A stretch of 48,441 nucleotides of DNA from Nemertoderma westbladi (Eukaryota; Animalia; Xenacoelomorpha): assembly GCA_032718475.1 (NCBI GenBank), contig JAUCBJ010007341.1, forward strand, positions 1-48,441. Direction: 5' to 3'. How positions within the stretch are numbered: position 1 is the stretch's first letter; each line of letters opens with the position of its first letter. The notes beneath the pieces were generated by a model, which was not told the DNA's origin, did no database searches, and saw nothing but the letters and a program-made list of their open reading frames with translations. This document shows positions 5,857 through 45,250 of this stretch, one piece after another. The position numbers and the translations under genes were made by a program.

Positions 5857-5887
<31 letters not shown>

Positions 5888-7592: not shown

Positions 7593-7804
7593 AATTATCT
7601 GAACTTATTCATGAATGAAGCAGTTACAACAGATATTTGGTTCCACGTTCTGTATCACACCACCGAGTGGTCAACTACGGGGGATAACAAGCTGAATCTA
7701 GAACGTTGGGTATACCAAGAGGGCTACCCAATTGTAACAATAAGGAAAGTAGATCATAACACCGCTCAACTAAGTCAGCACGCTTTCTTCACTAACTACA
7801 CCGG
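7593..7804 (+). CDS. M1 aminopeptidase exon (WVYQEGYPIV)
   Basis: tacag|aat..gg|gtgagt; WxxQxGYP motif of M1 domain II/III junction. Confidence 0.9.
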
Positions 7805-12000: not shown

Positions 12001-13480
12001 GTATTCTTTGTGCTAAATAAGGACAAGGACTAACTCCAAACATCAACACAGTCATACAATATTTTTCAATGGGTTCATCTTTATTATTTCGCCACAAATA
12101 CTGCTGATAACAATGCTGATCTGATACCAGTTTAGTTTGTAAAAACATCTTGCGTATATCTGCTACAAGAGCTATAGGTTTTGTCCTGAAACGAAGTAAA
12201 ATTTGAGCAATATCAGGTTGCAGAATAGGCCCAGGTAGTAGACAATCATTCAGTGAGTTCCCATTCTTGTCTTTGGTGCTTGCATTATAAACTATTCTAA
12301 CTTTGGTAGAAGAGCTGCCTGGTTTATAAACTGGATGATGTGGAAGAAAGAACTGTTCACCATTCATGAATTGTTCTTCTTCTTCAGCTGAAACTTTATG
12401 GGCAAATCCCTTTTCAACATAATCATTAATAGTCTCCCTATAAATCTGTTTCTCAACTTGAGATTTCTCCAGTCTTTTCTCAAGTGATTCTAATAGTTTC
12501 TTAGCTCGATGGTAATTAGATACAAGAGTTGGTGCTTGAGGCTTGAAAGGTAGAGCAACAGAATAATGGCAGTTCTGGTCATCATAATTAAGTGAGATTT
12601 TGAACTGCTCCTCTGCCTCTCTTTCATCTTTGGTAAGCACCTTGGAAGAATTAACAATGCCAATTGTTTCTATATCCCAAAACCGTTCCATTGAATTCAA
12701 CAGTTTTTCATTAATCCTGGTTTGGGTAATATAACATGACTTTGGTCTTGGTTTAATTCGCTTATTGCTAGTATCTGGGCCACAAACAACATATCCAAAG
12801 ACTGTGGCCATAGCGCAAGGAAGTTTATTGTTAGAAGGGTGACGAATAATATCGCCAGTAATAAATTGAAAGAAATAATCCATTCCAATTAAAATGTCCA
12901 GTTGTTCATAGCCATGTGGAAATTCGTCAGCAAAAAGTAGACCTTGCAGATGTGTACACTTTTCTAAATTAATAGCCAAGGGTTGAATTTCCTTACAGAA
13001 ATCGGGAAATGACGCTGCTGTCATTTTAAAGTATAAACTTGAATCGGTTTTGGAACATAATCCAAACTCAACTATATCTGCATATTCAACAATAGTTGAT
13101 TTACCAAAACCTGTTACTTCCATTTCTTCAGTTGACACAATGTTCAGATCTAAAGATTGGGCAATACATTTTCGAATAAAAGAAACTTGGGAAAAACTAT
13201 CAAATCCCACACGCACTTCACAGGGAGTTCCATTATCTAATGGCATAAGCATTACCTTAGCTGTTGGAGAGATAAATTGAGTTTTAAGGTCAGCCTTAAC
13301 TCCAAGTGATATAGCTTGTGTTGTTACTTTATGACTACCAGAATTCATTATAGCCTTCTTATCAACATGCAGTAAGGGATGGTGCTTGTCTATGCAGCCT
13401 TCAACACCACATTCATCTGGTCTACGACAGTCCTTCTTGATATGGTTCAGTACATAAGAAACATGCTCCCTTATCAGCAA
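8993..13480 (-). CDS. BEL/Pao Pol (protease, RT, RNase H/peptidase A17, integrase)
   Basis: LPHHPV..K.R.V, SLND.L..GP.L, FYVDD, LHAFSDAS..AYG, RLEL, NPAD..SRG, SDN, GG.WER, RPVQRL. Confidence 0.95.
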   Translation of the reverse strand: MLIREHVSYVLNHIKKDCRRPDECGVEGCIDKHHPLLHVDKKAIMNSGSHKVTTQAISLGVKADLKTQFISPTAKVMLMPLDNGTPCEVRVGFDSFSQVSFIRKCIAQSLDLNIVSTEEMEVTGFGKSTIVEYADIVEFGLCSKTDSSLYFKMTAASFPDFCKEIQPLAINLEKCTHLQGLLFADEFPHGYEQLDILIGMDYFFQFITGDIIRHPSNNKLPCAMATVFGYVVCGPDTSNKRIKPRPKSCYITQTRINEKLLNSMERFWDIETIGIVNSSKVLTKDEREAEEQFKISLNYDDQNCHYSVALPFKPQAPTLVSNYHRAKKLLESLEKRLEKSQVEKQIYRETINDYVEKGFAHKVSAEEEEQFMNGEQFFLPHHPVYKPGSSSTKVRIVYNASTKDKNGNSLNDCLLPGPILQPDIAQILLRFRTKPIALVADIRKMFLQTKLVSDQHCYQQYLWRNNKDEPIEKYCMTVLMFGVSPCPYLAQRIRIHHCERPDMIAKFPLAAKEASDSFYVDDLLGGADNEIQAEQLYIELVDMCKMAGYELTKFGSNSAKLLSLIPEKDRLVGNFVSFTDQSDLGNTKALGLGWNYETDDTFSLVVTDRLTDLSTYSRTKRLMLSKISQIYDVFGFVSPFVIRGKIILQNMWLNKCGWDDELTDGIINSFREWERELYLLQTIKVPRLFYKGNPTIVQLHAFSDASEVAYGAVVYMRTEFCDSNTSSHFVMARSRVAPLKRLRLARLELLGAVLAARLVKYILDALHQRVDINSYYLWSDSEIALGWIAKESYTWNTFVQNRVQEIHDLSPIEVWRFVPGDQNPADLLSRGTSLMEMKDSAFYWQGPDWLIKNNDDWPKSSLNVEIELPEKRPIKQHKYVKRIIQGLSTPTINSSEHLVQDDEASESICLVSNLKSANVTQFSNYITEYYGRFSNLIRFTVRCFRWLARARKKLSQGVENSDEVALDKQPTTLTSLHPYLVTLEEMEATEMHWWKILQKHYFMEAYNLLSQNKPLPNKHHLLPLNPQYDIDRQLLVVGGRLEFSDLPLSAKHQILLPKGEGLVQKLILQVHISNQHAPQEVLLSLLKQKYWIINSRHEIRKAVHLCNVCNHHKTVPMEQIMGNLPPERLQISPAFWNIGIDFTGALLIKEGSSTHKAYICVFTCAASRMCHFELALNMETSEFLQCFRRMVNRRGLCKTVTSDNQKTFKKASKVFKLNFSDNIWKHLDKEAIASFMNERKISWNFIVERSPFRGGYWERINRSLKEPLRKILSKSLLTYTEMYTVLTDVEAMINSRPLTYHSPDTKDILPITPAHLALGRPLRPLHDLGGKEVSLTKRYVYLQGLLDNFWRRWQTEYLHQLQPRQKWQLEKEPIKINDIVLISEDRTRRNSWPMGRVTETHPSKDGIIRTVTVETKKGKFSRPVQRLHLFERYYETRLQDSPKDSDDLGDRINYRKKKIDETPDIVSSREDVAESDSGPIKTSSGRTIKKPDYYY

Positions 13481-15629
13481 CTATTTGCCTTTTTTCAGCT
13501 GTGGTAGCTTGAATAAATTTATAACAAGATGATAAAAACCGACATTTTTTCTCACAAAGTGGACACTTGTATTCAACTTTAGCAGTACCTCTATCAGTAT
13601 CCACTTTTGACTTGTCCCAGTTCTTAGAGTATGAACCAGATCCCTTAAATCCTTTTGGCTTAGTCCCACTATCAGACCCTACTGCTAATGTTTGAGAAGA
13701 AAACTTTCTATCCTTTTCTTTCAAAGGTTTTTTATCATCTTTATTATTATTATGAGTGTCTTTCTTATTGCATTCATCTCTCGTAACATCTTTCCGTGCT
13801 ACCAGAGTTTGCAACCAAGAAATAAATTCCTCATATGTGGGCATTGCACCATCTATATGCTTGTCATCAACTTCCTTTTCCCATTCTTCCCGAATTTTTT
13901 CAGGGAATAATGTTTCCATGGAAGATAGCAGAAAGTTGTCAACAGTTAAATGGTATTTAGATAGATCCAACATGACATTTTGTATTGAATCACATAACTT
14001 TCGCAATGCAGAAATATTATCTTCATCAGTAACTTTTGAAAAGTTCTGAAGTTTTTTGATTAAATGTTTTACAACAATTCTTTCCTTGCCATAAAACCTT
14101 TTAACACTTTCAAGAGCCAGTTTATAATTGTTCGCAGATATTTCCATATCAATAATACAGGTAGCAGCTTTTCCTACTAATGCCTTCTTTAAGTATGTCA
14201 TTTTGTAGAAATTACTTACCTTGTCATTATTGCCTACTATAGCCTCGAATTTTGAAAACCAGCATGGAAATTCTGAATAGGAACCATCGAATTTTGGTAT
14301 GTCTACACCACTAGGTAGACCACCTCGCATTCGTTCCTCTTTATCGGCATCACGCTTCACTTGGGTAAATGTTTTATAGCGACCTATTGCTTGACGAAGA
14401 CTATTTATGTCCTCCAGCAGTTCTGAATGACGTTGATCAATTTTTGTTATTGCAGATTTACACATTTTATGTGTAATAAATCCTTCACACTGTTCGAGAC
14501 GTTTTTCTATAGAACGTAGATCGAAATCTAGTGCATTTGGATCCTTTTCATCTTCAGAGAGTTCATTTACTCTCCTAACAGCTAACCAACAGGGTTTAGC
14601 TAGACGAATATATTCATCAATTTGATTTGATTCCTCAATATCTTGTTTCCTCTGAAACATCACTGAGTTTATTCTGTGCTTCAATTGTCTAAACCGGTGT
14701 TTAAACTGCTGAAAATCTTCAAATAAATCATTTTTAAGTTCCTCATTTTCCAATGAAAACAGACGCTTGTTTACAAATTTATCAGCATCCTGTAGTTCCT
14801 CAGTAGCATCATCAATACGACGCTGCCAAACATGCACATCCATTTCATAAGGATCAATATCAAAATCCATTTCTGCATATAATTCTTGAAGATGGGACAT
14901 TATTGACCTAAATTTATTCTCAATTGATTCAGCTGAATTGGATACAGAGGATAAACCACCAGAATCATTTAAAGGAGATCCCCCTTGCCCATTAATTGGA
15001 GAGGATGTACGTTGGGGTTGGGGTTTTCTGTTAATTGTTTGAAACAACAACAGTAAATCTCTGCGATCCTGTTCCCTCCAATCTCGTTCTCGACGTTCTC
15101 TTTGTTCATCCAGCTGCATTTGCATATTGAAGAATTGGGTCATCATAGCTGATTCCAGCGGCCCGGTACCGGTAGCAGGTCCGGTACCGGTAGCAGGTCC
15201 GGTACCGGTAGCAGGTCCGGTACCGGTAGCAGGTCCGGTACCGGTGGCAGGTCCGGTACCGGTGGCAATCGCACTGAATTCAGTTGTAGGCCTACTTGTT
15301 GCAATAGATGGTGGATGCGCTAAGGGATTAATAATATTATATGGACTACGTTGGATTGGTGAGAAAACCTGGCTCAAATTGTAACCAGGTCGCTCAGTGG
15401 ATTGCGAATCTGCAAATCCAAAATTAATGTTGTCAATATCGTCATTACTTTGGTCTGAGGCGAGGAAGACTCTCAAGCGATTCCGTTTTTCTCCAGTAGT
15501 TCCGGAACACAAGAGACCTCTCTCTTCCAAACAACGATCCAACTCCAATGGCGTCAGATTGCCAATGTCTTCCAGAGCGGGTAAATCAGCCCGTCTGTCT
15601 GACTTCAGATAATATGGTGACTGCGCCAT
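13422..15629 (-). CDS. BEL/Pao Gag (SAP-like N-terminus, GPATGT repeats, DUF1759-like region, Zn knuckles)
   Basis: IPKFDG..F..W...F, K..YLK..L.GKA, NY..AL..L; CxxC knuckles at the end; frameshifted relative to pol. Confidence 0.9.
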   Translation of the reverse strand: MAQSPYYLKSDRRADLPALEDIGNLTPLELDRCLEERGLLCSGTTGEKRNRLRVFLASDQSNDDIDNINFGFADSQSTERPGYNLSQVFSPIQRSPYNIINPLAHPPSIATSRPTTEFSAIATGTGPATGTGPATGTGPATGTGPATGTGPATGTGPLESAMMTQFFNMQMQLDEQRERRERDWREQDRRDLLLLFQTINRKPQPQRTSSPINGQGGSPLNDSGGLSSVSNSAESIENKFRSIMSHLQELYAEMDFDIDPYEMDVHVWQRRIDDATEELQDADKFVNKRLFSLENEELKNDLFEDFQQFKHRFRQLKHRINSVMFQRKQDIEESNQIDEYIRLAKPCWLAVRRVNELSEDEKDPNALDFDLRSIEKRLEQCEGFITHKMCKSAITKIDQRHSELLEDINSLRQAIGRYKTFTQVKRDADKEERMRGGLPSGVDIPKFDGSYSEFPCWFSKFEAIVGNNDKVSNFYKMTYLKKALVGKAATCIIDMEISANNYKLALESVKRFYGKERIVVKHLIKKLQNFSKVTDEDNISALRKLCDSIQNVMLDLSKYHLTVDNFLLSSMETLFPEKIREEWEKEVDDKHIDGAMPTYEEFISWLQTLVARKDVTRDECNKKDTHNNNKDDKKPLKEKDRKFSSQTLAVGSDSGTKPKGFKGSGSYSKNWDKSKVDTDRGTAKVEYKCPLCEKKCRFLSSCYKFIQATTAEKRQIVADKGACFLCTEPYQEGLS

Positions 15630-15833
15630 ATTATTACCAGTTTAGTACCGGTACCGTACCGTTAAGAAGTAGGCCTAACGGAAACGGCCCACAATAAAAA
15701 AATAAACTGCAGGTCCAGATACTTCAATTAAAAAGAAACCGGTATCCGTATCATTAGGAAGTAGGCTTGACGGAAGCGGATTGCAGCAAAATAAACTGAC
15801 TAGTTAATATCAATAACATTAGTTACTTGTGAA

Positions 15834-16294
15834 TGTATCGAGTTTGATAAAACTCATTTTATTAATGAAAGTAAAATCCAAGAAAAGTCATACTTGTCAA
15901 CCATTCAGTCTATAATCAGTTATATTTAATTGTTACATCTGTACATTCAGACATTTGACCATGAATCTACCGTTTAATGATGCGATGCTGATGCTAATGT
16001 TCACAAGTATTGACACATTTACATATTAACTATAAACCGGTAACTATTGCAGTTTGCAAAAATATATAGGCCTGTAGGAATTATTTCCCGCTAGCGGTAA
16101 CATTATATTGCTGCACAGTACAGCAGTTTGTAGGCTACGGTAGTGCAGTAAGTAGGCCTAAAACCAATAACAGTTAATAACCCTACAACATCAGATACAA
16201 GATCATTATACTGCATAGCTAATAATAATAATCGGGTTTTTTAATAGTCCGCCCAGATGAAGTTTTAATCGGTCCACTATCAGACTCTGCTACA
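15834..16294 (-). repeat. BEL/Pao 5' LTR
   Basis: Direct repeat of 8608-9068. Confidence 0.95.
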
Positions 16295-16360
16295 AGTATA
16301 GTGCATGGCTCTCCCCCGTGAAGTCTGCATGTCTCTTTCATATATTATATATATCAGTCA

Positions 16361-16387
16361 TGGCGCAGTTATGATTTTCGAACCTAC
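16361..16387 (+). promoter_or_regulatory. Gypsy primer-binding site, tRNA-Ser-like
   Basis: TGGCGCAGT..TTCGAACCTAC directly after the LTR; resembles the complement of an invertebrate tRNA-Ser 3' end as I recall it. Confidence 0.7.
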
Positions 16388-16551
16388 AACTGTATTGCTG
16401 TATTGCTGTACCAGCTTACTGCTACCACCTACCACGCTACCAGTATACTCTGCTAGACCGCCAGGCCCTCGGGCCCAGGCCAGCCATACCCGCACATTAG
16501 GTTCTGTCTGCCCGTCTGCTGTTAATAAAGTAATAGGCCTACATTAATACT

Positions 16552-19500
16552 ATGGCGCACAACTCAACCGACCCCCGCTCCTTCGTACTCCGCAGCGCAG
16601 CCCCTCCGTTCGACATCGACTGCGAACGTTCGACGTGGGACCTGTGGATCGAGGAGTGGGAAGCGTTCCTGGTGACGTCGGGCCTCGAGAACCTGCGGAC
16701 CATCGACCCCACGGACCCTCCGGACCCGGCCGTCTCGGCCGACCTCCTCCGGGCCACCAACAGACAGCGTCGAGCCGCCCTCACATCCGCGTTCTCCCGC
16801 AGTACGAACGCCGTGGTAAGGGGACTTGGGCTCTCCACTGTCGACAACTCGGATGCGTCCCTCGTCATCGCGACACTCGGTACCCACGTCCACGGAGGGA
16901 CTAACAAACGGGTCCACCGACAGGAACTCGCCCGGCGTTCCCGCCTCCCAGAGGAAACACCGGAGACCTTCCTGGTCCACCTCCGGGACATCGCCACCAA
17001 GTGTGAGTTCGAGGCGCTCCCCACCGCGGCGGCCCACGCCAACGATCGGCTCCTCGATCAATTCATCGCGGGCTTCGGCGACAAAGAGGTGACCGAGCAG
17101 CTCCTCCGCCTGCCTCCAGACAGCTACATCACGGATGCCCTCCGCCTCGCGCAGACTGTCTGGACTGCCCGCAAGGACGCCGCCTCCATGTCGTGGAGCG
17201 GGGCCCCCGCAACCGCTCCCACGGCGCCCTCGGCTGCCAGAGCGACGGCGCAACGCAGCCGCCGGCCCAGGCCCCGCCGCGATCAACCACCCACCCGCTG
17301 CCCGCAGTGCGGGTTCCCCCCACACAACGCGGGAGCCCGTTGCCCCAGCGCCGATGCCCGCTGTCGCCACTGCAACACAGTCGGGCACTACAATCGGATG
17401 TGCCCCCGCCGCCCCCAGACCAACGCAGCCGACGGGCCCGCCACCGATTACGACGACGATCGGTCGACCAACGCCGCCGAGATCTGGTCGATCCTCGCCG
17501 GTCCCGAACTTTACGACGCCCCCACCGTCTCCTCCATTGAACAGTTGGAGTCCCTCGAGACGGTGACACTGGGATTCCAGGTCACTAAGAACCCCAGTTT
17601 CGGAATCACCGAACTCCAGTTCCTCCCAGATTCCGGTGCTAACATTACGGCGATTCCCTTCCGGATCTACTCAGCCTTCGGGGGGAAAGTCGAGATCCTC
17701 CGGAACTCCAACCCGCCGCCCCAACCACCTAAACTCGCCAACGGTAGTCGAGCGGGTTGGGTTTTTAAGGGAGTATTCGGCGCCACCATCCAGTGCCATG
17801 CATTGCACACTGCCTGCACCACGGATGTCTGGGTCCTGGACGGCCTCCACCAACCACTGCTGTCCAGGATGCAGGAAGACCTGCTTCACCCTCGGGATCC
17901 TGTGGAGCCCCATCCTCCGGGGTGGGCGGGGGCCACCCGACGCCCTCACTAGGCAATGTGCGAACCAGCTACTGGCCGCGCCACTGCCCACGCCACCGAC
18001 CACGCCACCAGCACAACCACCGCCAACCCCACCAACACCGACACCATCGCCGACACTGCCACCCAACGCGACCCAGACCTGGGAAACCCTGGTTACCCGG
18101 TACCCCCGCCCCCTCTCTGGGAACTGTAGGGTTATGGCCGGGGGGGATATAACCATAAAACTGCTCCCGGACGCCAAACCATCGTTCCGGTACTCCAACC
18201 GCCCCATACCGGCCAACCTGGAGGAGGCATTCGACAGGGAGCTCAGCGGCCAGGTTGCCATGGGGATCCTCGAGCCCGCGGACGATGCCAACAGTCCCAG
18301 CGCGTGGCTCAGCCCCATGGTCGTTACTAGGAAGAAGAGCGACCCCAACTCCGTCCGGATTACTGTCGACCTCCGGGAGTTGAACCGCCACACCGTCCGA
18401 CCCGCCTACTTTTCCCCGGACCCGTTCCAGGTCGTCTCCCGCGTCCCCACATCGGCCCGCTACTTCTCCGTCCTCGATGGACTCAAGGGGTTCCACCAGG
18501 TCGGCCTCGATCGGGACAGCCGGGAGCTCACCACGTTCGCCACTCCGCGGGGACGGTTCCGGTACCGCCGAATGCCCATGGGGTGGCACGGCAGTTCGGA
18601 CGTCTTCAACGCCCGGATGGCCAAGGCCCTCCAGGGCGTCCCCAACATCGGCCGGATCGTCGAGGATATCCTCATCTATACCGACACCATAGAGGAGCAT
18701 CCGGAGGCAGTGGCGAGAGTTCTCGCCGCCTGCGACACCGCCGACATCTCCATCAACCCGAGGAAGGTTCAGTTCTGCCTTCCGGAGGTCAAGTTCGGCG
18801 GCTACATCGTCTCCCACGGCCGATTCCGGATCGACCCGGAACTCACGGACGGCCTACGGAACTTCCCGACCCCAACCTGCCGGAAGGAACTCCGATCGTT
18901 CCTCGGCCTCGCCCAGCAGCTGGGAAACTCCACAGCCGAGATAACCCAACTAATCGAACCCCTCCGGAGCCTGAACTCTAACTATAACAGCTGGTTGTGG
19001 CTGCCCCAACACAACCAGGCGTTCGAGGCGACTCGGTCCGCCCTGTCCAGCCCCCACTACCTGTCTGGGTTCCACCCCGACCGACGGACGGAACTCCTCA
19101 CCGACGCCTCCCGGCTCCACGGACTCGGTTTCCTTCTCCGACAGCGCGACCCCGACTCCAACCGTTGGCTCACCGTCCAGTGCGGCTCCCGTACCCTCGC
19201 CAAACACGAGGCCAACTGGTCCGGTATGGCCGAACTGGAGGCCCTCGGCGCTGCGTGGGCGGCCCACAAGTGCCGCTATTTCCTCGACGGACTGCGGCAC
19301 TTCGAACTGGTGACCGACAGCAGTCCGTTGATTCCTGTACTGAACGATCGCAGCCTCGACCAGGTCACCAACGACCGCCTGCTGAAACTGAAGACCGCCT
19401 TGGCGCGGTTTAATTTCACCGCTCGGCACCAACGCGGCACCAAGCACCTCGTGGCTGACGCGTTCTCCCGCGCCCCCCGCCACGCACCGGAGCCCTCCGA

Positions 19501-20985
19501 CCTACTACTCACCCCGGAGGACGACGCCGACCGGGAGTTCATCGTCAACGCGGCTGCGGGAGAAATACAACCCGTCGAATCCCGGGACGCCCGTCTCGAA
19601 CAGGTCCGCCAGGTCGGCCAGCTAGACCCCGTCTACCGCGCCCTGCTCACCACCATCGACGAGGGCTGGCCAACCTCCAAACACCAGATTACCGACGACC
19701 AACTCAGACCTTACTTCGCTCACCGCGCTGACCTGATGGCCCACAATGGCCTCATCCTCCGCGGGCCCCAACTATACATCCCCGTGGAACTGCGACACGA
19801 GACCCTGCTGCAACTCCACGCAGTCCACCAGGGCCTTAACAAGACGCGAGAACGCGCTAACAGGTCTGTCTGGTGGCCCTCCATCGCCCACGACATTACA
19901 CAGGAGGTGGGGCGGTGCCAACCGTGTCAGGCAGTCCTCCCCTCCCACGCACCCGAGCCCCTCCAGCGCAACCCGGAAGCGACCCGTCCGTTCCAACGGA
20001 CCCACATCGACCTCTTCCAGGTCGACGCCAAAAACTACATGGCCGCCACCGACGAGTTCACTGGGTGGCCGACATTATATCGGCTAAACTCCGACACCAC
20101 CTCGGTCGCCATTATCGACTGCCTCCGTAAGCTGTTCCTCGCCACCGCGGTGCCTACGGTGCTCCACCCAGATGGAGGCCCCAACTTGTGTCAGACGCCA
20201 TCAAGAACTTCCTCCATCGATGGGGCGTCACCCTCGAGCCTTCCAGCCCCCACCTCCCACGCACAAACGGACTGGCGGAGGCCGCGGTGAAAGCCCTTAA
20301 GAAGATCGTCCGGGGAGCCAACCACGACTCAGACGACATCGCCCAGGGGATACTCGCGTTCCGGAATACCCCCCGCTATGGAGGCCGGTCCCCCGCGGAA
20401 CTCCTCTACGGCAGGAACGTCCGTGAGGCCCTCCCCGTGCATTTCACTGCACTCGACCCCAAATGGCGCCAAACCTTCGCCGAGCTCGACGCCCTTGCCG
20501 ACTCCAACCGCGCGCTACTCCGGGCGAACTATGACGGCCACACCCGACCACTCCGGGCCCTCCCAGTAGGCCACCCTGTCCTTATCCAGGACCCCCGCGA
20601 TAAACGCTGGACGGGCCAGGGGACAGTAGTCGAGACCCTCCAGAACCACGACTACCTGGTACGTCAAGCCAGCGGCCGCGTTGTGCGACGCAACCGGGTT
20701 TTTCTGCGGACCCGGTCGCCCACGCTACCACCCTCGGGCCCACCACTACCGCCCACCCCACCACAACCACTCCAAGAAGTCACACCCAACCCACCACCAC
20801 TGGCGCCACCCATACCCACCTGGGCCGACGTCGCCGCGCCGCCTCAGCCACCGACCACCACCAGCCCCCCACGGGCACCCCAAATACTGACCCAAGCCCC
20901 ACCACCCCCCGCCCCCACCCATACCCGATCCGGTCGAACCATTCGCCCCCCACCACGATACGCCAACAGTGACTACAGTAAATAA
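16552..20985 (+). pseudogene. Gypsy gag-pol (two CCHC knuckles, PR, RT, RNase H, integrase) with two frameshifts
   Basis: CPQCGFPPH..CRHCNTVGHYNRMC; FLPDSGA; LDGLKGFHQ, RMPMG, IVEDILI; TDAS; HQG..C..C and D-D-E; frameshifts at about 17869 and 20187. Confidence 0.92.
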
Positions 20986-21239
20986 CCCTCATAGCCTGTT
21001 CATTTTAACTTTTAGCGGTATATCGTTATTTACCAGTATGTTTATTGCTAATCACCCACCCCCTCCTAAGAAGGGGATATGTGTAGTATAGTGCATGGCT
21101 CTCCCCCGTGAAGTCTGCATGTCTCTTTCATATATTATATATATCAGTCAATTATATATATCAGTCAGCTTCTGTCTATATTAAATACCAAAACACCTCG
21201 ATATGATAGAAAATCGTCGTTTTCATCGACTCAGCAAAA

Positions 21240-22962: not shown

Positions 22963-23185
22963 GTAAGTATTCTTAAAAGCTCATGGTGGCTAATGGTTCC
23001 ATGCTACCGGTTTCTCTACTGCTGTTCTCTCAGGCTATCAGTACCGGTAATAGTATAATAGAGCACTATTTTGCAGTATTATTGCTGTATTGTATGTACA
23101 GATGTAGGTATAAAGCAGGTATTTTAGTACCGGTTCCGGCACCGGTACTGCTGTAGGCCTACTGTGTAGCCTACGGGCTGACCGG

Positions 23186-23860
23186 TTGTTGTTTTGGTTA
23201 GAAAATCCCGCCTCTGTAACCTGCTCCTTTCCCTGATTTGGTAAAGTGACCGTTTATTGTTTTGTTAGAAAGGCCCGCCTCTGTAACCTGCTCCTTTCCT
23301 TCATTTTGTAAAATTGACTGTTTATTGTTTCGGTTAGAAAATCCCGCCTCTGTAACGCCCCTTTCCCTCAATTTGTTAAATGATCGTTTATTGTTTTTGG
23401 TTCGAAAATCCCGCCTCTGTAACCTGCTCCTTTCCCTCAATTAGTTAAGTGATCGTTTATTGTTTTGGTTAGAAAATCCCGCCTCTGTAACCTGCTCCTT
23501 TCCCTCAATTAGTTAGGTGATCGTTTATTGTTTTGGTTAGGAAATCCCGCCTCTGTAACCTGCTCCTTTCTCTCAATTGGTAATGTTATCGTTTATTGTT
23601 TTGGTTAGAAAAGACCATCTATGTAACGCTCCTTTCCTTCATTTGTTAAAGTGATTGTTTATTGTTTTGGTTAGAAAATCCCGCCTCTGTAACCTGCTCC
23701 TTTCCCTGATTTGGTAAAGTGACCGTTTATTGTTTTGGTTAGAAAGGCTAGCCTCTGTAACCTGCTCCTTTCCTTCATTTGGTAAAGTGACTTTATTGTT
23801 TTGGTTAGAAAATCCGGCCTTAACCTGCTCCTTTCCATCAATTGGTAATTGTTTTTGGCT
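23186..23860. repeat. Approximately 61-62-bp minisatellite, about 11 diverged copies
   Basis: Unit TTATTGTTTTGGTTAGAAAATCCCGCCTCTGTAACCTGCTCCTTTCCC.. Confidence 0.92.
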
Positions 23861-28564: not shown

Positions 28565-29050
28565 CTACTTATTACTGAATATATGAGAGTCAAGACCCGG
28601 TCGTGGTTTAGATGGCGGGGGTAACCGACGGACCATGTGTCTAGCGTAGTCACTGTTTACCACTCCGGCCTCACGCAGCGCCATCTCTAGTCGCAATCGT
28701 GGGTCTTCCATTAACTTATCATTACTGTAACCTGGTACGTGTCCATATTGTGTTTGTTCAAGGGCCTCTTCGACAATATGCCCTTTGCTTGCTTTAGTGT
28801 GACCAATAGCCCGAAGTGGGTCCTTTTCTACCTCAATCTCATTGGCTACTTGCATTCTCAATTTATCTAATCGTTTCTCTCTGTGCAATTCTGCAGTTTC
28901 CAATAGCCGTTGTTTCTGATTGGCCGCTTCCATCCTGGCTCTCAGTTCAGCCCTCCGATAGGCCACCCGTTCCCGATTCCTTTCTGCTGAATGTTTCAAT
29001 TCGATCTCTAAGTTCAGCAACTCGTCTTTTCGTATCTTTTCTTCATGAAA
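28565..29050 (-). CDS. CCDC148: CCDC148-like coiled-coil protein, terminal exon
   Basis: cag|ttt acceptor at 29051; DPRLRLEMALREAG..YAR..PP..PR..S.IF matches my recollection of the CCDC148 C-terminus. Confidence 0.85.
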   Translation of the reverse strand, partial: FHEEKIRKDELLNLEIELKHSAERNRERVAYRRAELRARMEAANQKQRLLETAELHREKRLDKLRMQVANEIEVEKDPLRAIGHTKASKGHIVEEALEQTQYGHVPGYSNDKLMEDPRLRLEMALREAGVVNSDYARHMVRRLPPPSKPRPGLDSHIFSNK

Positions 29051-29390
29051 CTGTCAATAAAATAAAATTGTTTAAGGATCCAAACGGATGCTACAAGTAA
29101 GTGATCGTATAACCCAGATTGACGAGAAATCTAATACAACTAATCGTATGAACTATGTTTAATAATCCACGGGAAATACAACCCAGTTAATTTAAGAAAC
29201 AGAGACTATGAAATGAAAGGATAACGCGGACAACCTTAAAGACCTTTAAGTATATTTAGAAAACGGTAAAATGTGGTACTTTTCACACAATCGATATAAA
29301 ATAGTTAAAATATTGTTCACATGGAAATGGGAGTTGCGAAACTATAAATTTGAACTTCCAGATGACGTTTGTTAAACACTTTTGTGCGAC

Positions 29391-29513
29391 AAAAATATTA
29401 TACTAATTATTATAATTAGAGTGATATTAAATATGATATCATTGATATATAATATATATCAATGATATCATATTTAATATCACTCTAATTATAATAATTA
29501 GTATAATATTTTT
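29391..29513. repeat. AT-rich palindrome, 61-bp arms, 1-nt spacer
   Basis: AAAAATATTATACTAATT..GATATATA-A-TATATATC..AATTAGTATAATATTTTT. Confidence 0.92.
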
Positions 29514-29679
29514 ATATTAGTATAATATTACTTACATTATATTAATTAGTTATTAGTTATGATATAATTAATAGAGGGATGTTCTCATATTGTACATTAC
29601 ACAACAGTAACCTCGACAATGCTATCCAATGATTGTCGTTTCGTGAGTGGTTTTTGTGTCGACTGTAACTCATACAAAC

Positions 29680-30405
29680 CTCTTTGAGCTGTTTACTGAT
29701 TTGGAATTCGGATATCTTGACTTTATTTTTGGCCCGTCTGTTTCTTTCTCTCTCGGTTGCTTCCTCGGCCTCTTTAGCCAACAGCGCCCGTTCCAGACCC
29801 AGTAACTCCTCCTCCAGTACCCATTGTCTCGTCTTTATCTCCCGCCATCGCTCCAACCTTCGATGTAACTCATCCGCATCCTCTAACTGCGCTTCCCGAA
29901 GACAGCTTTGTTTTTCCCGCAGCTTAGCAACCGCCACTGACTCCCCGAACAGACACCTCGCCTGCTCCAGCAGTTCCAACCGATCCCGATCCCATTGATT
30001 CTCAAGACTTTTTATTTTTAACCTAAGAAATCTATCCCCCTCGCAGTGGGCGAGTTGTTCCTCGAGGAGTCCTCGGGACCAGTCCGGGAACTGTCGGTGC
30101 AATCTGTCCACCAGCAGACGGTGTCGGTTCACCGTCTCCCCAACCGGGTACTGCTCCAACACCATCCCCACTAACATTCTCGTCTCTGACTCCATTATGG
30201 ATGACAGCTCGCCACGTTCTCTCTCCAGGTCTCTCAATCTCGTCTCGTAACTTTCGTCCACCGCCAGGAGTTCGAGTATCATGTAAATACGCAGCGATGT
30301 GTCCGGACATTCCCACTCAAATAGTTTGCGCGGAAACTTACGCCCCCTGGTGGAACTTGATGGCACTGCGGATGTTTCATCGGTATTCATATCGGAACTA
30401 CTCAT
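29680..30405 (-). CDS. CCDC148: CCDC148-like exon (242 codons)
   Basis: tacag|atg..gag|gtttgt, phase 0-0; ECPD..L, coiled-coil sequence. Confidence 0.85.
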
Positions 30406-30431
30406 CTGTAATTAACCAGAATAGATTCAAA

Positions 30432-35450: not shown

Positions 35451-35974
35451 CTGAATAATAACAACCTCGATTAATAGTTACTTTATTTATACGGATAAAA
35501 AAGTTACTTAATTGAAGTAAGTCAAATGGGCAAAATTACAATCGTCAGGTCGTGTAATAAAGTATATTGAAATAAAGTAGTACTTTATGTCCCGCTGACC
35601 CTGGTATATTTTGCAGAACCAGTACAGGGCTCGGTTACAGGCTGCAATACTGTAGGCCTATGTGATGAGGGCAGTATTATACAATTCATCCTGTATTAAC
35701 TATATTGAAGGTTAGAAGGCCTATAGTATGTAAATGTATGTATTTATTGACTTAGTAGGCCTCATTATACACCATCACCTGGAAAATTGTGTCAAAATCT
35801 GCCCCCCCCCCCCCCCCCCCCAACTATTTCTACAAATCTTAATGAGATTGCATGAAATTTGAAACAGAGATAGTTTCACCTTCCTTTCACTCACCACTTT
35901 TTCCTTAGTGGGTGAGCCAGAATTTTTATTTATTTCTATTTTCGCTTTCATTCTTTAGCTACAAGCGTATCAAA

Positions 35975-38900
35975 AATGCGCAAATTGGCCCAGAAGACAT
36001 CAAGGGTTACACCTATAACACCAGTTCTAACAGAAATGGGTACTTACTTTTAGACCTAATGGAAGAATGTGTATTGATACCAACAAACAACACATTCGAA
36101 AAGAGTAAGGGGAAGCTATGGACCTTTCAATACCCTAATGGAACCAAAGCACAACTGGATTACATCCTTATAAACAAAAAGTGGAGAAACAGCATGATCA
36201 ACTGCGAGGTATACAGCTCGTTCAACCTAATTGGTTCGGACCACAGAATTGTGACTGCAGAGATAAGACTCAGTTTGAGAGCCAGCAAACCCAGGACAAG
36301 CAAGCAAATCAACTATGACTGGGAGAAACTCAGAACTGACAATGCTGTAAAGTAAAGGATGCTTACACAGTAGAAGGTCAAAACCGCTTTGAAGCACTTC
36401 AGTCAATGGATGAAGACCAATCCACCGATTCAATATACCAGAATATAATAACAGCCCACAAGGAATCAGCTAAGAGGCATATCCCCCAGAAACCCAAACG
36501 AAAACAGTATGTGCCATGGCAAAACTCTGAGGTTACTTGTAAGAGAGAAGATCTTAAGATAGCCTACAAAGTTAAAACCGAACAACCAACAACTGAAAAC
36601 ATTAACAAGGTTGAGAAAGCTAAGGACGATCTTAAATTGGCCTACAACATCAGCCAGGAAAAGTACATACAGGATAAAACTGAAGCAATTACAACTGCTC
36701 ACATACAGCAACAATCAAGACTTACCTGGCAAACTGTAAATGAGGTATCTGGTCGGAAAAGTTGTGCAAAGGGGCGCCTCAAAGCCGATAGTCCTGAAGA
36801 ACGTGTTGGGAAGTGGAAAAATCACTTCAGCAACTTGCTTGGGCAACCAAACATCGAGGTCAGCCCTACAAGGAAAATATATGACAAGACACTACCTATA
36901 GAAACAGGGGACTTCACACCTGCCGAACTCCAAAGAAGCATTAAAAGCATGTCTAATAATAAAGCGAGTGGATTAGATGAAATCCCAGCGGAGGTATGGA
37001 AAACCGGAGTGCTAAACAGACCATTATTGAATGTTTGCAACCGGATGTTAAAAGGGGAAAAGCCACCACCAATTTGGACTAAAGGTCAACTAAAGCCTCT
37101 CCCCAAGAAAGGAGACCTCGGCATACCAACAAACTATCGTGGGATCTGTCTGCTTGTGGTAGCTGCCAAAATATACAATAAAATGATTCTATATATGATT
37201 AGGCCTCACATAGAGAAACTACTGCGTAAGAGCCAAAACGGATTTCGACCAAGTAGATCAACAATAGCTCAGATACTTGCACTACGGAGACTGATTGAAG
37301 GAATTAAGTCAAAGAATCTCCCCGCAGTCATGACTTTTGTGGACTTCAAGAAGGCATTCGACTCCATCCATAGAGGTAAAATGCTTGAAATCCTAAGAGC
37401 TTATGGAATACCAGAAGTAATTGTTGCTGGCATTGGATTGCTATATTGTGACACAGAAGCGCAGGTACTCTCACCAGATGGTGAAACTGAGTTTTTCTCA
37501 ATCCTGGCTGGCGTACTGCAAGGTGACACATTAGCACCATTACTATTTGTAATTGTACTGGATTACGCAATGAGGACGGCCACAAAGGGTGAAGATCTGG
37601 GATTCACACTTCAAGAACGCAGAAGTAGTAGATATCCGGCAACTACAGTCACAGACACCGACTTTGCGGATGACATCGCCCTGCTCTCTAATACGCTAGC
37701 AGATGCACAGCTTCTACTAAATAAAGTGGAGAGGGCTGCTAAGGAGGTTGGATTGCATATAAATGCTACCAAGACCGAATTCATGACCTTTAATGTTGAT
37801 GGAAACTTGACAACCATTGATAATAATCAACTAAGGAAGGTCGATGACTTCCAGTACCTTGGATCATGGATAGAGAGTAGCAAAAAGGAAATAGAAGTTA
37901 GGAAAGCAACTACTACTAGGATCGGCATGCTGCATTGCAGCTGCATTTTTAAGAATGCTGTGCCGGCTTGTCAACAAAATTGCACCGCCACAACTCCCTA
38001 TCACCCATGACATTTGCTAGATCATCCGCATCTTTAAGGCCAGTGTCCTTTAAGATGCGTCTCAAGAAAGTCATGGGCTGTCCACCATGCTTATTCACTC
38101 CATGAGGCTGCCAAGGTACAAGATTATGCACTGGCTGGTCCTCACGGCGAAAGCAATGTCCTGCAAAGCAGAGGCGATTTTGTTCTAGTGTCAAGCTTGG
38201 GGGAACCAATGAGACACCTCCAATGTTATATAGTGTCTGGTTGGAGATGTGTGCATTGTACTTGACACAATGAACCCGGCGTAGCATTCTTGTGAATGTG
38301 CCATCCAGAGATTTGGTGTCCTCAGCAGTTAGAGCCCAGCATGGACTCCCATAGAGGAGTACTGGAACTACTGCTGCTCTAAATAATCGGACCTTAAGTT
38401 TCCGATTAATTCTCGGTGACTTCCAAATCCTGGAAAGCCTATTCAAGGCTGCCCGTGCCTTTCCCTTACGTATTCGAAGGTCCTCACCTGACTTCCGGAT
38501 CCATGATCCCAGGTAACAGAAGTCGTCCACATGCTCAAGCATACCATCCTTTGAGCTTATGCTCATCCGATCAGAGACTTGCTGAGGACTTTCAAAGTTA
38601 ACTGTCAGAATTTTGGTCTTTCTGGAGTTAATAAAAAGACCAACACTAGAAGCAGCATGTTCTAATGAGCTGAGGAGCCGTTGGGCTCCCTCTAATGATT
38701 CTGAGAGTACTCCTAAGTCATCAGCAAAGTCTAGATCAGTTAGGTACTTGGCAGGATTTCCTCGATTTCTGGAGCCAGTAGGTGGAGTTATCATCACCCC
38801 ATCATCATTATAATGATCTAAGGACATGCGTAGAACATAGTCAACCACAATAATGAACAAGAATGGTGCAAGTGTGTCTCCTTGGAGGACGCCCCATAAT

Positions 38901-40143
38901 ACTTCAAATGGTTCTGTGTCACCGTCAACATTAGACACAAATGTTGTCGAACCATCATATACTGATCTGATTGCTGCAATAATTTCATCAGGAATCCCAT
39001 ATAATGAACGTATGCTGAACATACGTGAGCGAGAGACTGAATCAAAGGCCTTGAAGAAGTCAACAAAGATAACAGCCAGATGCCTGTCTTTCTTTTTTGA
39101 TAACTCTTCAATTATCCTTCTAAGTGCCAAAACGGGCTCCATGGTCCCACGACCTTTACGGAACCCATTCTGATTTCCACGGAGCAGTCTCTCAATGGGA
39201 TCCCTGATGCGATTTAATAGAATCCTATTGTATAGCTTTGCAGCAATCGAGATCAATGAGATTCCCCGAAAAGAACCATAGAGTGTTAGGTTGCCCTTCT
39301 TGGGAACTGGCACCAACTTATTTGTTTTCATTTCTTGTGGGACTCTTGTTGTTCGGTACATGTCTACTATGATGGGATAGATGAGCTTTAAACACTCAGG
39401 TATTTTAAAGACCTCAGGGGGAACACCATCTACTCCACTGGCACGATTGGTCTTAATGCTCTTTGCAGCAGCCTTCACTTCTGCAAAGGAGATATCGCCA
39501 ATGGGAATATCTGGGAGTACAGACTCAGAAACTTTTACTTCTATAAAGTTATCAGGCAATACCCTGTCATTATTGAGGAGCTTTTCAAAGTGGGCTTTCC
39601 AACCATTGAGGCGATCGGCTGGTGGAAAGCAAAGGGTTGGGTAGCTCTATCAAAAATGGATACCATCTGGAAATCAGATCTCTCCAGGCACCTGAAGACT
39701 AAGTTCTTTCGAGCCACAGTGGAAAGTGTATTTTTATACGGGGGTGAGACCTGGACACTGACCAAATCACTTGAACAACGAATTGATGGTTGCTACACAA
39801 GACTACTAAGGCCAGCCCTAAACATCAGCTGGAGACAACACATGACAAACGCCGAGCTTTATGGTACAATACCACATGTATCAACCACCCTCCGTGAACG
39901 CAGATTAAGATGCAGTGGGCACTGCTGGCGAAGTAAAGACGAGGTCATACCAGATCTACTTCTCTGGCAACCAACTCATGGAAAGCGTAGTCGTGGACGA
40001 CCGGCCATAACATATATAGATCAACTTGAAAGGGATACTGAACTTGGGAGAAACGAAATTGCGACAACTATGGAGAATCGGGAAGCCTGGAAGGATCTCA
40101 TTTCCACTGTCCGAGTTCGCTCGACCTAGTAGTAGTAGTAGTA
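35975..40143 (+). mobile_element. 5'-truncated RTE-like LINE (family A), interrupted by a second LINE
   Basis: APE end (QLDYIL, SDH), RT (QNGFR, DFKKAFDS, GVLQGD, FADD, YLGS), C-terminal part resumes at 39633; (TAG)n tail; 5-bp duplication frameshift near 36350. Confidence 0.92.
37910..39623 (-). mobile_element. 5'-truncated RTE-like LINE (family B) nested antisense in LINE A
   Basis: Open RT ORF 37949-39559; (TAG)n tail at 37910; 9-bp TSD GGAAAGCAA (37901-37909 / 39624-39632); removing it restores VRKAKGW in LINE A. Confidence 0.95.
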
Positions 40144-40450
40144 TAAAAAAGGTGTCTCCGACGATAGTGAACCAGCTACACCGCAGTTATTCGTCAAACT
40201 TATAGCGTTCAAAAGTTGCATGGTTTTGGACCTGGTGGGGGCTATTTTATTTATTCTATTTAATAAATACAACATATTCTGGAACATATTGTTTATCCCA
40301 TAGATTTTGTCCTGAGAATTTCGACCAAACCAATATTTATCTCCACTAACGGGTATTATTAGTAGTCTTTCACGTAGTATAATTACAATCATAGTCTACC
40401 CGTTACGGAAGCTCAAGCCTATTTATTAGAGTTGAGGTACAGTATACAAT

Positions 40451-41008: not shown

Positions 41009-41316
41009 ACATGTCTTAACTTTCGTTTATTGTTTTGGTTCCCCCAACACGCCTCTGTAACATGCTCCTTTACTAACCTGCTCCTTTAAATGACAATGGG
41101 ACCTAACGCTCTATGGGACCTAACGCACTTTGGGATCTAAGGCGACCCTACCTCTTTGTTTTGTACAGGTCACATCACAAAGAGCGTTAGGTCCCATTGC
41201 CATTTAAAGGAGCAGGTTAGTAAAGGAGCAGGTTAGTAAAGGAGCAGGTTAGTAAAGGAGCAGGTTACAAAGGCGTGTTGGGGGAACCAAAACAATAAAT
41301 GAAAGTTAAGACATGT
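41009..41316. mobile_element. Fold-back MITE-like inverted repeat with 17-bp subrepeats
   Basis: ACATGTCTTAACTTTC.. / ..GAAAGTTAAGACATGT, arms of about 100 bp; TAAAGGAGCAGGTTAG repeats. Confidence 0.8.
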
Positions 41317-42728
41317 TACAAGATTATGCAGGTCTTTATAATTGGGTCTTTGTATTTTTACTATATTGTTATTGTTATTTGGTACAAAAATTATCTACCA
41401 TCTATTTAGCCGATAGGTGAAAAGTACCTCCCAACTAGTTGGTAGCTATTTTTTTGTTATTGGTCGGAATTGGAATTGGAATTTTTTATTAGACGTCAAA
41501 TCAGCTAAAATTTACGCAATTAAACCGATAACATAATAAAATAGTTAACAGAACAACAAAAGTACGAACAAGCCAATGCAAAGACCTTCAATCAGATATA
41601 TTAATGGTTCAATAGGCATCTGTACTGTACTGTATGTTTATAAATAAATATTTTAATATGTTACTGAACTGAAAATACGATGGGCATAGAATATACGTAG
41701 TTGCGCGGGGTCTCTAAAACATTGAGTAATAATGATTTGTCGTCGAGGATAGCCCCATGAGACTGCGTCTCGTTTCCTTGGGGGTCCTCGCTATGCGATG
41801 AAAATCTTATTGTTGTAATAAGTCTACTGTATGAGTAAAATAAAAATATAATTAATATAAGTACGTAGTTAGTAAGTCTGTTTTTGTCTGATAATTAAAT
41901 TTTTCAAAAATATATTAGTAAGAAAAAGCGGATATTTCAGATAAAAATAAATAATAAATACAGTAGATCTCATATTGGGGAGATGATAAATTAAAGAGGA
42001 TAACAATTCACACAAATACAGTACAAAATATAATACAGTACACCATGACCCGTAATATAGTGGCATGCTGATGACACGGACGCCCCCCCCCCCCCCCCCC
42101 AAATTTTTCTACAAATCTTTATCATATTGCTTGAAATTTGAAACACAACTAGTTCAACTCACCCTCGATGACCCCATGAAGCCTGAATTTTCGATGTCGC
42201 CTTTAAATTTTATTTATAAACGTTTTAAAAAACGTGTCTTTTGCGAAATCGCACCCTCTGTATCATTGCCATTCTTCACTTTAGTCGTAATTTTTTCACA
42301 TCAATAGAAAGCTTGCGTTGAAAGGATTCCAAATATGTAACAATGTCTGAATTTATTTCATTGAGAAACAACTGAGATACAGGCGTTCAAGGATTGCAAG
42401 AACGATTATTCGCTGCAGGCCATTTATTCTATTTAATAAATACACAAAATTCTAGAACGTGTTATTTAGTTTATGAGTTGGTTGGCAACAGCGGTATTCC
42501 TATCCAATATATCAATTGCGTAGCTAATCATATATAAACAAATTGTTCCAGAATTTTGTGTATTTATTAAATAGAATAAATGGCCTGCAGTGAACAATAA
42601 TTCTTGCAATCTTTGAACGCCTATTTCTCAGCTGTTTCTCAATGAAATTCAGATATTGTTACATATTTGGAATCCTTTAAACGCAAGCTTTCTATTGATG
42701 TGAAAAAATTACGACTAAAGTGAAGAAT

Positions 42729-43239
42729 AAAATAGGACATGGGGTCTTATTCCCTCAGATACTACCTAGCATTTAGGGCCACTTGGGCCACTGTTAGTAC
42801 TCAGGCACTAAGGCCCATCAAAAAACAAACTACCAAATCGATTTTAGTGCTACATAACCCAACAACCCAACTACCACAAGAAAAATTACACCAAACCATA
42901 CAGTAACTACAGGTTCCGGTAAGTATTGCACGAAATAGACTATCCCATAAATTACGAAAAATATAGGACATTTTGTCCGCGAAAAGGTAAGTCTAAAGTA
43001 ATAAATTTTATAAAAATAAAAGGGTTTCGGAGATTTAAACACTGAACCCTGGGATTCGTGGTTCTCCTCATCAGCAGTGTGCCACGAACCCCACCCCTAC
43101 CCTAACAAAACTGCACCACTAAATTAAGACAATGACCAATAAAATAGAAATCCTACCGTACCACCAAACTGTCCTATTTTATTGTTTTCATACTGTATTA
43201 ATATCACAATCCCTCTAAAGTTGTGGTTGTCTAACATCA
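42729..43239 (-). mobile_element. 511-bp non-coding, ribozyme-carrying insertion (retrozyme or non-autonomous Penelope-like retroelement candidate)
   Basis: 13-bp TSD TAAAGTGAAGAAT (42716-42728 / 43240-43252) interrupting one arm of a fold-back MITE; contains the hammerhead. Confidence 0.75.
43021..43092 (-). ncRNA. Hammerhead ribozyme with non-circularly permuted (rearranged, pseudoknotted) strand order
   Basis: Minus strand: GGGGUUCGUGG C ACACUG CUGAUGA GGAGA A CCACGAAUCCC AGGGU U CAGUGU UUAAA UCUCC GAAA CCCU; all core nucleotides, stems I (6 bp), II (5 bp), III (5 bp) and an extra 11-bp helix. Confidence 0.85.
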
Positions 43240-43928
43240 TAAAGTGAAGAATGGCAATGATACAGAGGGTTGCGATTTCGCAAAAGACACTTTTTTTAAA
43301 ACGCTTATAAATAAAATTAAAGGCGAAATCGAAAATCCCGGCTTCATGGTAACAACCACGGTGCGTGGAACTAGTTGTGTTTCAAATTTCATGCAATATG
43401 ATCAAGATTCGTAGAAAAATCTGGGCGGGGGGGGGGGGGGGGGGGGGTCCGTGTCATCAGAAAATGACACTATATTACGGGTCATTGTGTACATACATAC
43501 AATAATAATACATACATAATATAATACATACAATACAAAAATAATAATTATTTACACTAGTATCAAACTGTAGGAACCATTAAGCATTTAGAGGGAAATA
43601 AAAATATTGAAATGGCAGTGGATTGTGGATTATTTAAAAAATAAAAATATTTACCGAATAATGTCATATTGTAAAAAACCAATAAAAAATTTAAATTAAA
43701 AAAAAAATACTTAAAAAAAAATATTAGTTTAAAAATTATAAGTTAAAAATATTGAAATGCAGTTTAAATTCCAAGCAATTTAGCTACTAAGTTATATATT
43801 GATATATCGGATGACATGATTTTTTCGAGAAGATACGATTTATTTTATGTTTGAAGGACTCAATATATTCAAAATGGGGCAGTTGGTCAGTTGATATTAG
43901 CCAATAAAAAAACACATAATTTCCTGAC

Positions 43929-44437: not shown

Positions 44438-45040
44438 TGGGATCATGGATCCGGAAGTCAGGTGAGGACATTCGAATACGTAAGGGAAAGGCATGGGCAG
44501 CCTTGAATAGGCTTTCCAGGATTTGGAAGTCACCGAGAATTAATCGGAAACTTAAGGTGCAATTATTTAGAGCAGCAGTAGTTCCAGTACTCCTCTATGG
44601 GAGTCCATGCTGGGCTCTAACTGCTGAGGACACCAAATCTCTGGATGGTACATTCACAAGAATGCTACGCCGGGTTCATTGTGTCAAGTACAATGCACAC
44701 ATCTCCAACCAGACACTATATAACATTGGAGGTGTCTCATTGGTTCCCCCAAGCTTGACACTAGAACAAAATCGCCTCCGCTTTGCAGGACATTGCTTTC
44801 GCCGTGAGGACCAGCCAGTGCATAATCTTGTACTTTGGCAGCTTCATGGAGTGAATAAGCATGGTGGACAGCCCATGACTTTCTTGAGACGCATCTTAAA
44901 GGACACTGGCCTTGAAGATGCGGATGATCTAGCAAATGTCATGGGTGATAGGGAGTTGTGGCGGTGCAATTTTGTCGATAAGCCGGCACAGCATTCTTAA
45001 AAATGCAGCTGCAATGCAGCATGCCGATCCTAGTAGTAGT
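44438..45040 (+). mobile_element. 3' fragment of RTE-like LINE family B
   Basis: Near-identical to the reverse complement of 37910-38511; (TAG)n tail. Confidence 0.93.
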
Positions 45041-45160
45041 AACCGGGTAGTGTACAACTTTAGGAATCGCGTAATTTACATTGAAATTAATATCTCATAT
45101 CTCTCCAAACCACCTAAGCGTTTCGACCTTACCGGGTCTCTTTAGCGTGGTCACTGGAGA

Positions 45161-45250
45161 AGGGAGTTGTGGCGGTGCAATTTTGTTGACAAGCCGGCAC
45201 AGCATTCTTAAAAATGCAGCTGCAATGCAGCATGCCGATCCTAGTAGTAG
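45161..45250 (+). mobile_element. Second, 90-bp 3' fragment of LINE family B
   Basis: Repeats 44950-45039 including the tail. Confidence 0.9.

Follow-up and report, generated by a model that had tools for sequence, protein, structure and literature searches.

A predicted type-CSG hammerhead ribozyme in a dispersed non-coding repeat family of Nemertoderma westbladi, a probable non-autonomous derivative of Naiad-type Penelope-like elements

This study concerns a 511-bp insert in a 48,441-nucleotide stretch of genomic DNA from the animal Nemertoderma westbladi (GenBank assembly GCA_032718475.1, contig JAUCBJ010007341.1), the whole of which is hereafter called the window. We find that the insert belongs to a dispersed family of non-coding repeats, of which it is one copy, and that its minus strand carries a predicted hammerhead ribozyme of type CSG, a non-circular permutation of the hammerhead. 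Because seven nematode Naiads, which belong to the Penelope-like elements (PLEs), carry, by eye, the same fold behind their open reading frame (ORF), the insert is likely to be a Naiad passenger. With a probability of roughly 0.65, we propose that it is a non-autonomous derivative of a Naiad-type PLE, corresponding to the pseudo-long terminal repeat (pLTR) region, and that its uncut RNA served as the template for target-primed reverse transcription in trans. An earlier note on this DNA, made from its letters alone, had described the insert as a small mobile element of the retrozyme or Penelope-like kind that carries a rearranged hammerhead.

Results

A type-CSG hammerhead is predicted on the minus strand

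The rearranged hammerhead alluded to in the earlier note is predicted on the minus strand, where the C block comes first, then the cleavage block and then the G block, with all core elements of the ribozyme present (Table 1). A linking helix is formed between the strand that lies upstream of stem I and the one downstream of stem II. The conserved core CUGAnGA, the GAAA and a NUH cleavage site are all present, and the U at the cleavage site is also found in 4 of 15 PLE hammerhead rows, among the table rows listed. Among 20,000 dinucleotide-shuffled versions of the insert a loose CSG descriptor has no match, nor has it one in 60 shuffles of the window, and the motif is the sole hammerhead, in any block order, in the window. 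Rfam gives no match at the gathering score in the window, and four chance-level matches around the insert.

On the computed pairs and the published alignment, we assign this predicted motif to the type CSG of Eckert et al. 2023 (PMC10085705). It shares with CSG-1 and CSG-2 the order of strands and helices, the linking helix, a 6-bp stem I, a 5-bp stem II and the spacing of the UUAA linker. It differs in a linking helix of 11 bp versus 8 bp, in a GUU rather than a GUC cleavage site, and in sitting in an animal repeat family, whereas the published examples have no context. As given in the parts of that report drawn on here, type CSG was described from two unique sequences (five records) in metagenome DNA without a known organism or genetic context; both cleave in vitro at 0.004-0.03 per min, no CSG was found in genomes of known organisms, and the authors graded the evidence for biological relevance as weaker (PMC10085705). 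The published search pattern would miss the window motif, because its linker is 12 and the limit is 10 (PMC10085705).

Pattern searches for further CSG examples were blank. There was no match in viral contigs, none of 21 matches in metagenome contigs (all on contigs >1 kb) folds as CSG, and the same is true of all five matches in prokaryote genomes. These blank searches are weak, because the published CSG examples and contigs were not recovered, which leaves their sensitivity unproven; moreover, the pattern demanded a UUAA linker, which is absent from most nematode Naiads.

By eye, the same fold is found in nematode Naiads

Reading the pairings by eye in the consensus file that supplements Craig et al. 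2021 (PMC8557442), we find that 7 of 8 nematode Naiad consensus sequences have, behind the ORF, the same CSG order together with a linking helix (Table 1). Their linking helices are 9-16 bp, stem I 5-6, stem II 4-5 and stem III 6-12 bp, and the paired sequences are all different. Across the window motif, CSG-1, CSG-2 and these seven Naiads the stems differ in sequence and yet pair, again by eye only. Naiad_Hpol also shares the GUU cleavage site. The eighth sequence, Naiad_Asuum, shows no core motif by eye in its last ~600 nt. The Pristionchus Naiads extend at least 500 nt past the ribozyme and the window element ~300.

Several reported features of Naiads resemble those of the insert. In the parts of the paper used here, Naiads are reported to lack canonical hammerheads, eight families are flagged 'HHR_half_core' with core halves 35-50 nt apart, and insertions are described with, at one of their ends, a 5'-truncated copy in inverted orientation and a tail of 30-40 bp (PMC8557442). 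The core halves in the window lie 39 nt apart, inside that range, and the insert likewise has a U-rich sense strand, an inverted copy of one end and a one-sided extension of ~40 bp (PMC8557442). It differs from Naiads in having no ORF, and the order of strands differs in the non-nematode Naiads examined (PMC8557442). The Penelope-like link proposed in the earlier note is in this way supported, and more specifically than it was proposed, through the CSG fold read by eye in nematode Naiads.

The insert lies in one arm of a host fold-back element

The insert interrupts one arm of a fold-back element that resembles a MITE (miniature transposable element with inverted repeats). Self-comparison of the window shows that the 511 bp are flanked by an exact 13-bp target site duplication (TSD), TAAAGTGAAGAAT. 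Elsewhere in the window this 13-mer has a single, reverse-complemented occurrence, at 42271 in the opposite arm of the MITE, where it is uninterrupted and serves as an empty-site proxy. When the insert and one TSD copy are taken out, the two arms are 86% alike over 945 columns. Both the sequence and this restored alignment bear out the earlier description of an insertion into one MITE arm. The length of the TSD is 8-13 bp, depending on how the junction microhomologies are assigned: at the left junction the last three TSD bases (AAT) also match the left end of the family, and at the right junction the final TA of the family overlaps the first two TSD bases. No second copy of the insert was found within the window.

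The host MITE is the target and not part of the ribozyme element, and 646-8720 contigs per DNA run map to this fold-back stretch. It is nearly all palindromic, with G/C runs near its ends, and related pieces lie at 35802-35879 and 40249-40296.

A TSD of 8-13 bp with junction microhomologies is generic for target-primed insertion. It also fits a SINE-like (short interspersed nuclear element) passenger of a long interspersed nuclear element (LINE), such as the RTE-like LINEs of the window, that captured a Naiad ribozyme segment, and LINE reverse transcriptase (RT) ORFs do lie 3-6 kb away. However, the insert has no similarity, or common 3' end, to the LINEs of the window, and shows neither a tRNA-like head nor a poly(A) or microsatellite tail, while its inverted block with extension, described below, is described as a PLE feature (PMC8557442). 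We regard a LINE passenger as quite unlikely. A tRNA-derived SINE was rejected, as a tRNA search of the insert found none.

The insert belongs to a young dispersed family

To place the insert among its relatives we used four public DNA runs (X1-X4) from three studies and one organism, which contain 20-41% of the sampled words; the search of public sequencing runs listed no RNA run with the sequence. The interval 42708-43260 is matched by 261, 192 and 22 contigs from three of the runs, and only 1, 2 and 0 of them extend into the MITE flanks. Among the contigs listed, loose ends that lead into unlike flanks lie repeatedly at 42726 (18 in X2, 14 in X3) and past 43241 (9 in X2, 6 in X3). These recurrent ends are ragged by several bases. 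Contigs with long unique parts have depths of ~5-70, and one contig reaches 4354. Depth does not equal copy number, but the difference suggests that the family has hundreds of copies. Relative to most copies, the window copy carries ~4 substitutions and 2-3 small indels, and because it barely differs, the family looks young. The mobile, non-coding family that had been anticipated is thus borne out by contigs in many unrelated flanks: the sequence is multi-copy, not a single copy without relatives, and a native part of the MITE is refuted by these flanks together with the empty opposite arm.

The family has an inverted end block

A 14-bp inverted repeat within the insert had been reported before; it is exact (42726-42739 and 43170-43183), with its first three bases shared with the last three of the TSD. 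In the family as a whole the repeat is ~30 bp, as judged from majority letters at the loose ends of the 18 X2 and 14 X3 contigs listed (agreement ~0.6). By the majority letters at its two loose ends, the family extends ~16 nt further left and ~5 nt further right than the window copy. The length of ~30 bp counts a 5-nt indel at 43191 that is found in nearly all other copies. The left arm is terminal and the right arm lies ~40 bp inside the end, where inverted copy and extension together form a right terminal block (Table 1). This block resembles the Penelope-type 'inverted copy plus tail', and its ~40 bp would derive from the parent element. Folding of 43100-43195 on the plus strand gives a z of -3.0, and a weak stem-loop at 43203-43227, in the right extension, is not beyond chance (z -0.39). 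Three to four contigs in each of the runs X1, X2 and X3 leave the element exactly at 43169, the inner edge of the right arm, into other sequence.

An inverted repeat of ~30 bp is also what a derivative of a DNA transposon with terminal inverted repeats, or a native MITE part, might show. However, the right arm is subterminal by ~40 bp, hardly any contig links the insert to the MITE flanks and the opposite MITE arm is empty, so that we consider this explanation extremely unlikely.

Another rival is a non-autonomous Helentron (HINE/DINE-1-like) DNA element with an acquired ribozyme fragment. On the plus strand the insert has, as in the published anatomy, asymmetric inverted repeats, the left one terminal and the right one ~40-60 bp from the end, then a terminal hairpin; a partial inverted repeat lies nearby, and there are derivatives that retain both ends (PMC4067079). 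In the parts of that source used here, however, HINEs leave their target unmodified, have no TSD and are flanked by TT, and a ribozyme is not mentioned (PMC4067079). The window copy, in contrast, has an exact duplication with an empty-site proxy (one copy), the ends of the family are ragged by several bases, the terminal hairpin is not beyond chance, and all seven shortened copies described below have their break within the right block, and most of them lack much of its inverted repeat. A HINE origin is very unlikely in our view.

Nine joints between family sequences are listed from three DNA runs. Seven of them skip internal sequence, all with right breakpoints within 43178-43215 and with left breakpoints spread over 42772-43041; this clustering has a nominal p of 2e-5 under uniform breakpoints, with detection bias possible, as joints close to unique flank might be picked up more readily. 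The other two are strand switches. None of the nine is head-to-tail, bearing in mind that short-read contigs break at repeats, and the window copy contains no partial-tandem copy that would form direct pLTRs. Only 1 of 7 left breakpoints falls within 4 nt of the predicted cut (3 nt away), which is not significant (p ~0.14).

These joints bear on the retrozyme idea of the earlier note. As a classical animal retrozyme, the insert would be a solo monomer, and tandem arrays elsewhere would be transcribed, cut from unit to unit, circularised and reverse-transcribed. As described in the portions of the literature used here, animal non-LTR retrozymes are tandem repeats with type I hammerheads and circular RNA (PMC7229834; bioRxiv 10.64898/2026.07.22.740005), and monomers are common in some families (bioRxiv 10.64898/2026.07.22.740005). 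The insert is like them in being short (~500 bp), non-coding, low in GC and PLE-related, with one hammerhead per unit and a TSD >4 bp (PMC7229834). However, it is a dispersed monomer with a CSG and not a type I ribozyme, no tandem array is seen among the listed joints and no second copy in the window, its left breakpoints seldom approach the cut, and its recurrent ends lie away from the cut, at ~195 and 315 nt, and carry an inverted block. Because the monomer has one ribozyme, there would be no release of unit-length RNA. These observations speak against the circular RNA model and make a retrozyme monomer unlikely.

A longer relative was found in run X4. This multi-copy contig, of 1210 nt and depth 463, shares 42728-42855 (11 other letters, 8 gaps), beyond which it continues for ~1076 nt in the downstream direction of the ribozyme strand. 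The first letters past the match continue the repeat motif, and for this reason the left arm appears native to the longer relative and the right block an appended copy. Weak hints only make this contig a candidate for a longer or autonomous partner. A frame from an ATG at 42740-42738 (minus strand) appears open through the 30 X4 letters seen, and these letters weakly resemble the right extension, by eye at ~11 of 22 positions beyond the repeat. All eight substitution rows at the depth of this contig are A-to-G on the plus strand (42768, 42771, 42775, 42799, 42803, 42810, 42817 and 42825); none has a 5' G neighbour and three are in a CpG-forming context. Possible causes are CpG decay and ADAR-like editing that reverse transcription has fixed.

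Coding capacity, composition and folding

The insert has no credible ORF, as had been stated: the longest stop-free frame is 88 aa and lacks a Met, and no frame of at least 45 aa has a Pfam match. The strong strand bias claimed for it is real, with U and G enriched on the ribozyme strand, and is only moderate in size, as G+U is 60% and 20 of 480 window tiles, including those of the insert, are equally biased. Folding of the whole insert is no better than that of shuffles (z -1.0), which is expected for a pseudoknot. Variants in 42726-42860 give no support for a conserved minus-strand structure, with one pair kept, eight broken and five variants unpaired (n=14). Inside the element, at 42949-42978, the left-end motif is nearly repeated, and a small GGACA/TGTCC hairpin comes next.

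Table 1. Positions in the window of the inserted element, its target and its predicted ribozyme, with the Naiads that carry the same fold
Feature	Position	Strand	Remarks
Host fold-back element, MITE-like	42038..43492	.	~930 bp without insert; arms 86% alike; very high copy
Left TSD	42716..42728	+	13 bp, exact; last 3 bases match family left end
Inserted element, non-coding	42729..43239	-	511 bp; copy of dispersed family
Right TSD	43240..43252	+	First 2 bases match family right end
Left inverted-repeat arm	42726..42739	+	Shortened in window copy; family arm ~16 nt longer leftward
Partial third inverted-repeat copy	43137..43147	+	Local hairpin with 43174-43184
Right terminal block	43170..43241	+	~30-bp inverted left-end copy and ~40-bp extension
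Type-CSG non-circularly permuted hammerhead (predicted)	43021..43092	-	Computed pairs and published alignment
Linking helix	43092-43082 / 43061-43051	-	11 bp, one G-U; same place as in published CSG alignment
Stem I	43080-43075 / 43044-43039	-	6 bp, Watson-Crick
CUGAUGA core	43074-43068	-	
Stem II	43067-43063 / 43033-43029	-	5 bp, Watson-Crick
Stem III	43050-43046 / 43025-43021	-	5 bp, Watson-Crick
UUAAA linker	43038-43034	-	
GAA core	43028-43026	-	GAAA spans 43028-43025
Predicted cleavage site after GUU triplet	43044..43045 (between 43045 and 43044)	-	Analogy with CSG-1 and CSG-2
Nematode Naiads with CSG fold			Naiad-1_Nbra, Naiad-2_Nbra, Naiad-3_Nbra, Naiad_Hcon, Naiad_Hpol, Naiad_Parc, Naiad_Ppac (Ppac assigned by file order)

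Other features of the window

The window contains several other repeats. A BEL/Pao element with long ORFs and two identical 461-bp terminal repeats occupies 8608-16294; immediately next to it lies a Gypsy-type element (16295-21150) whose 66-bp end repeats are identical. Both look recent. At 41009-41316 lies a 308-bp fold-back element, with arms 96% complementary and short internal tandem units, for which no flanking direct repeat of at least 7 bp was found. Nested LINE-type RT fragments on both strands are found at 35909-40129 and 44438-45250, and 37909-38511 recurs inverted, at 98%, at 44438-45040. Two tandem arrays, at 3014-4702 and 23179-23853 (units of ~39 bp and 68 bp), contain no hammerhead in any block order. 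On the minus strand at 28565-30411, two long frames resemble CCDC148 (Atlas, score 0.95, recognition value just under threshold), and two protein sequence searches gave no match; the suggested protein is eukaryotic, and with the mobile elements it fits an animal host.

Discussion

The best explanation for these observations, in our opinion, is that the insert probably derives from the pLTR region of a Naiad-type PLE and would be mobilized in trans. The following steps are proposed. The ribozyme strand would be transcribed, and a partner protein with GIY-YIG and RT domains would nick AT-rich DNA on both strands, 8-13 bp apart. The nicked plus strand ending in AAT would then prime inside the ~30-nt U/A-rich 3' segment of the RNA, ~300 nt downstream of the ribozyme, and uncut RNA would be copied through the ribozyme. 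The right block, with its inverted end and ~40-bp tail, may go back to a second start site where the other target strand primed; it is a PLE signature that would now be fixed in the family. Repair would duplicate the target. The right block could also be the 3' end of a plus-strand RNA, which would make that strand an alternative template for copying today. The ribozyme would cut the element RNA slowly or conditionally, given its GUU site and the published CSG rates of 0.004-0.03 per min; its cutting would separate tandem or read-through transcripts, and each insertion would need no cutting.

Such a sequence of events has a parallel in the Poseidon PLE of Anolis (PAc). According to the portions of that study (Frangieh et al. 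2024) used here, cutting and extension in vitro affect both strands of AT-rich DNA, reverse transcription starts internally at two sites that bound a 30-40-nt tail, and the main template is uncut RNA (PMC11167929). The likeness to our proposal lies in the internal RT start downstream of the hammerhead, the two start sites bounding the tail, the cutting of both strands in AT-rich DNA and the uncut template, each of which was demonstrated in vitro for PAc and is only deduced for the insert (PMC11167929). PAc differs in being autonomous and in having a canonical hammerhead that overlaps the ORF start (PMC11167929).

Several observations weigh against a Naiad origin. No primary-sequence match between the insert and a published Naiad was found, and the link between them is a shared RNA fold, read by eye. 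Naiad records of a coral, and those at the acanthocephalan, ostracod and cephalopod positions, have the G block before the C block, as surveyed from matches 11-62 of 62 to 'ctgatga' in the PMC8557442 supplement, where matches spanning a line break are missed. Because these records order G before C, CSG is not a clade-wide marker of Naiads; rather, there appear to be at least two rewired orders of the hammerhead among Naiads, CSG in those of nematodes and G-before-C in the coral, ostracod-position and cephalopod-position records. The linkage to RT or GIY-YIG ORFs that had been suggested as a check was likewise not found, as none of 73 frames in 39.5-48.4 kb has a Pfam match, and the RTs of the window are of LINE, Gypsy and BEL type. 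As for the family itself, no substitution is listed among copies in 42998-43095, and 43097-43190 is equally invariant; because the ribozyme and this interval alike show no variation, there is no covariation within the family. The TSD is documented for the window copy alone (one copy), no tail was seen on the left end in any of the nine listed joints, and the plus-strand layout fits HINE anatomy as well.

The CSG permutation and the existence of Naiad and PLE passengers are already known separately. A literature search, with most subscription journals outside its scope, found no published report that unites CSG with Naiads or places CSG in an animal genome. We give about even odds to the view that CSG is the native ribozyme of one Naiad branch and that the family described here, a dispersed mini-element, is a non-autonomous PLE of a new kind. 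If this is true, the two orphan metagenome examples of CSG would gain a biological home in animal retroelements, and the hammerhead of Naiads would come in at least two distinct rewirings, both non-circular. The mini-element would then have frozen the twin-primed 'inverted end plus tail' and spread it as a unit in hundreds of near-identical copies.

If CSG is present in a young animal family as well as in seven nematode Naiads, two questions would be settled: the host and role of CSG, and the reported 'no canonical hammerhead' in Naiads, which are among the most abundant invertebrate retroelements. CSG Naiads would also supply many natural variants for work on covariation and structure, and would explain why standard search patterns miss them. 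Finally, copy counts of a short, multi-copy and two-ended family in a single assembly can put to the test how Penelope-type integration is completed, and the last steps concerned, namely the inverted ends, the tails and the role of the ribozyme, are those that are poorly understood.

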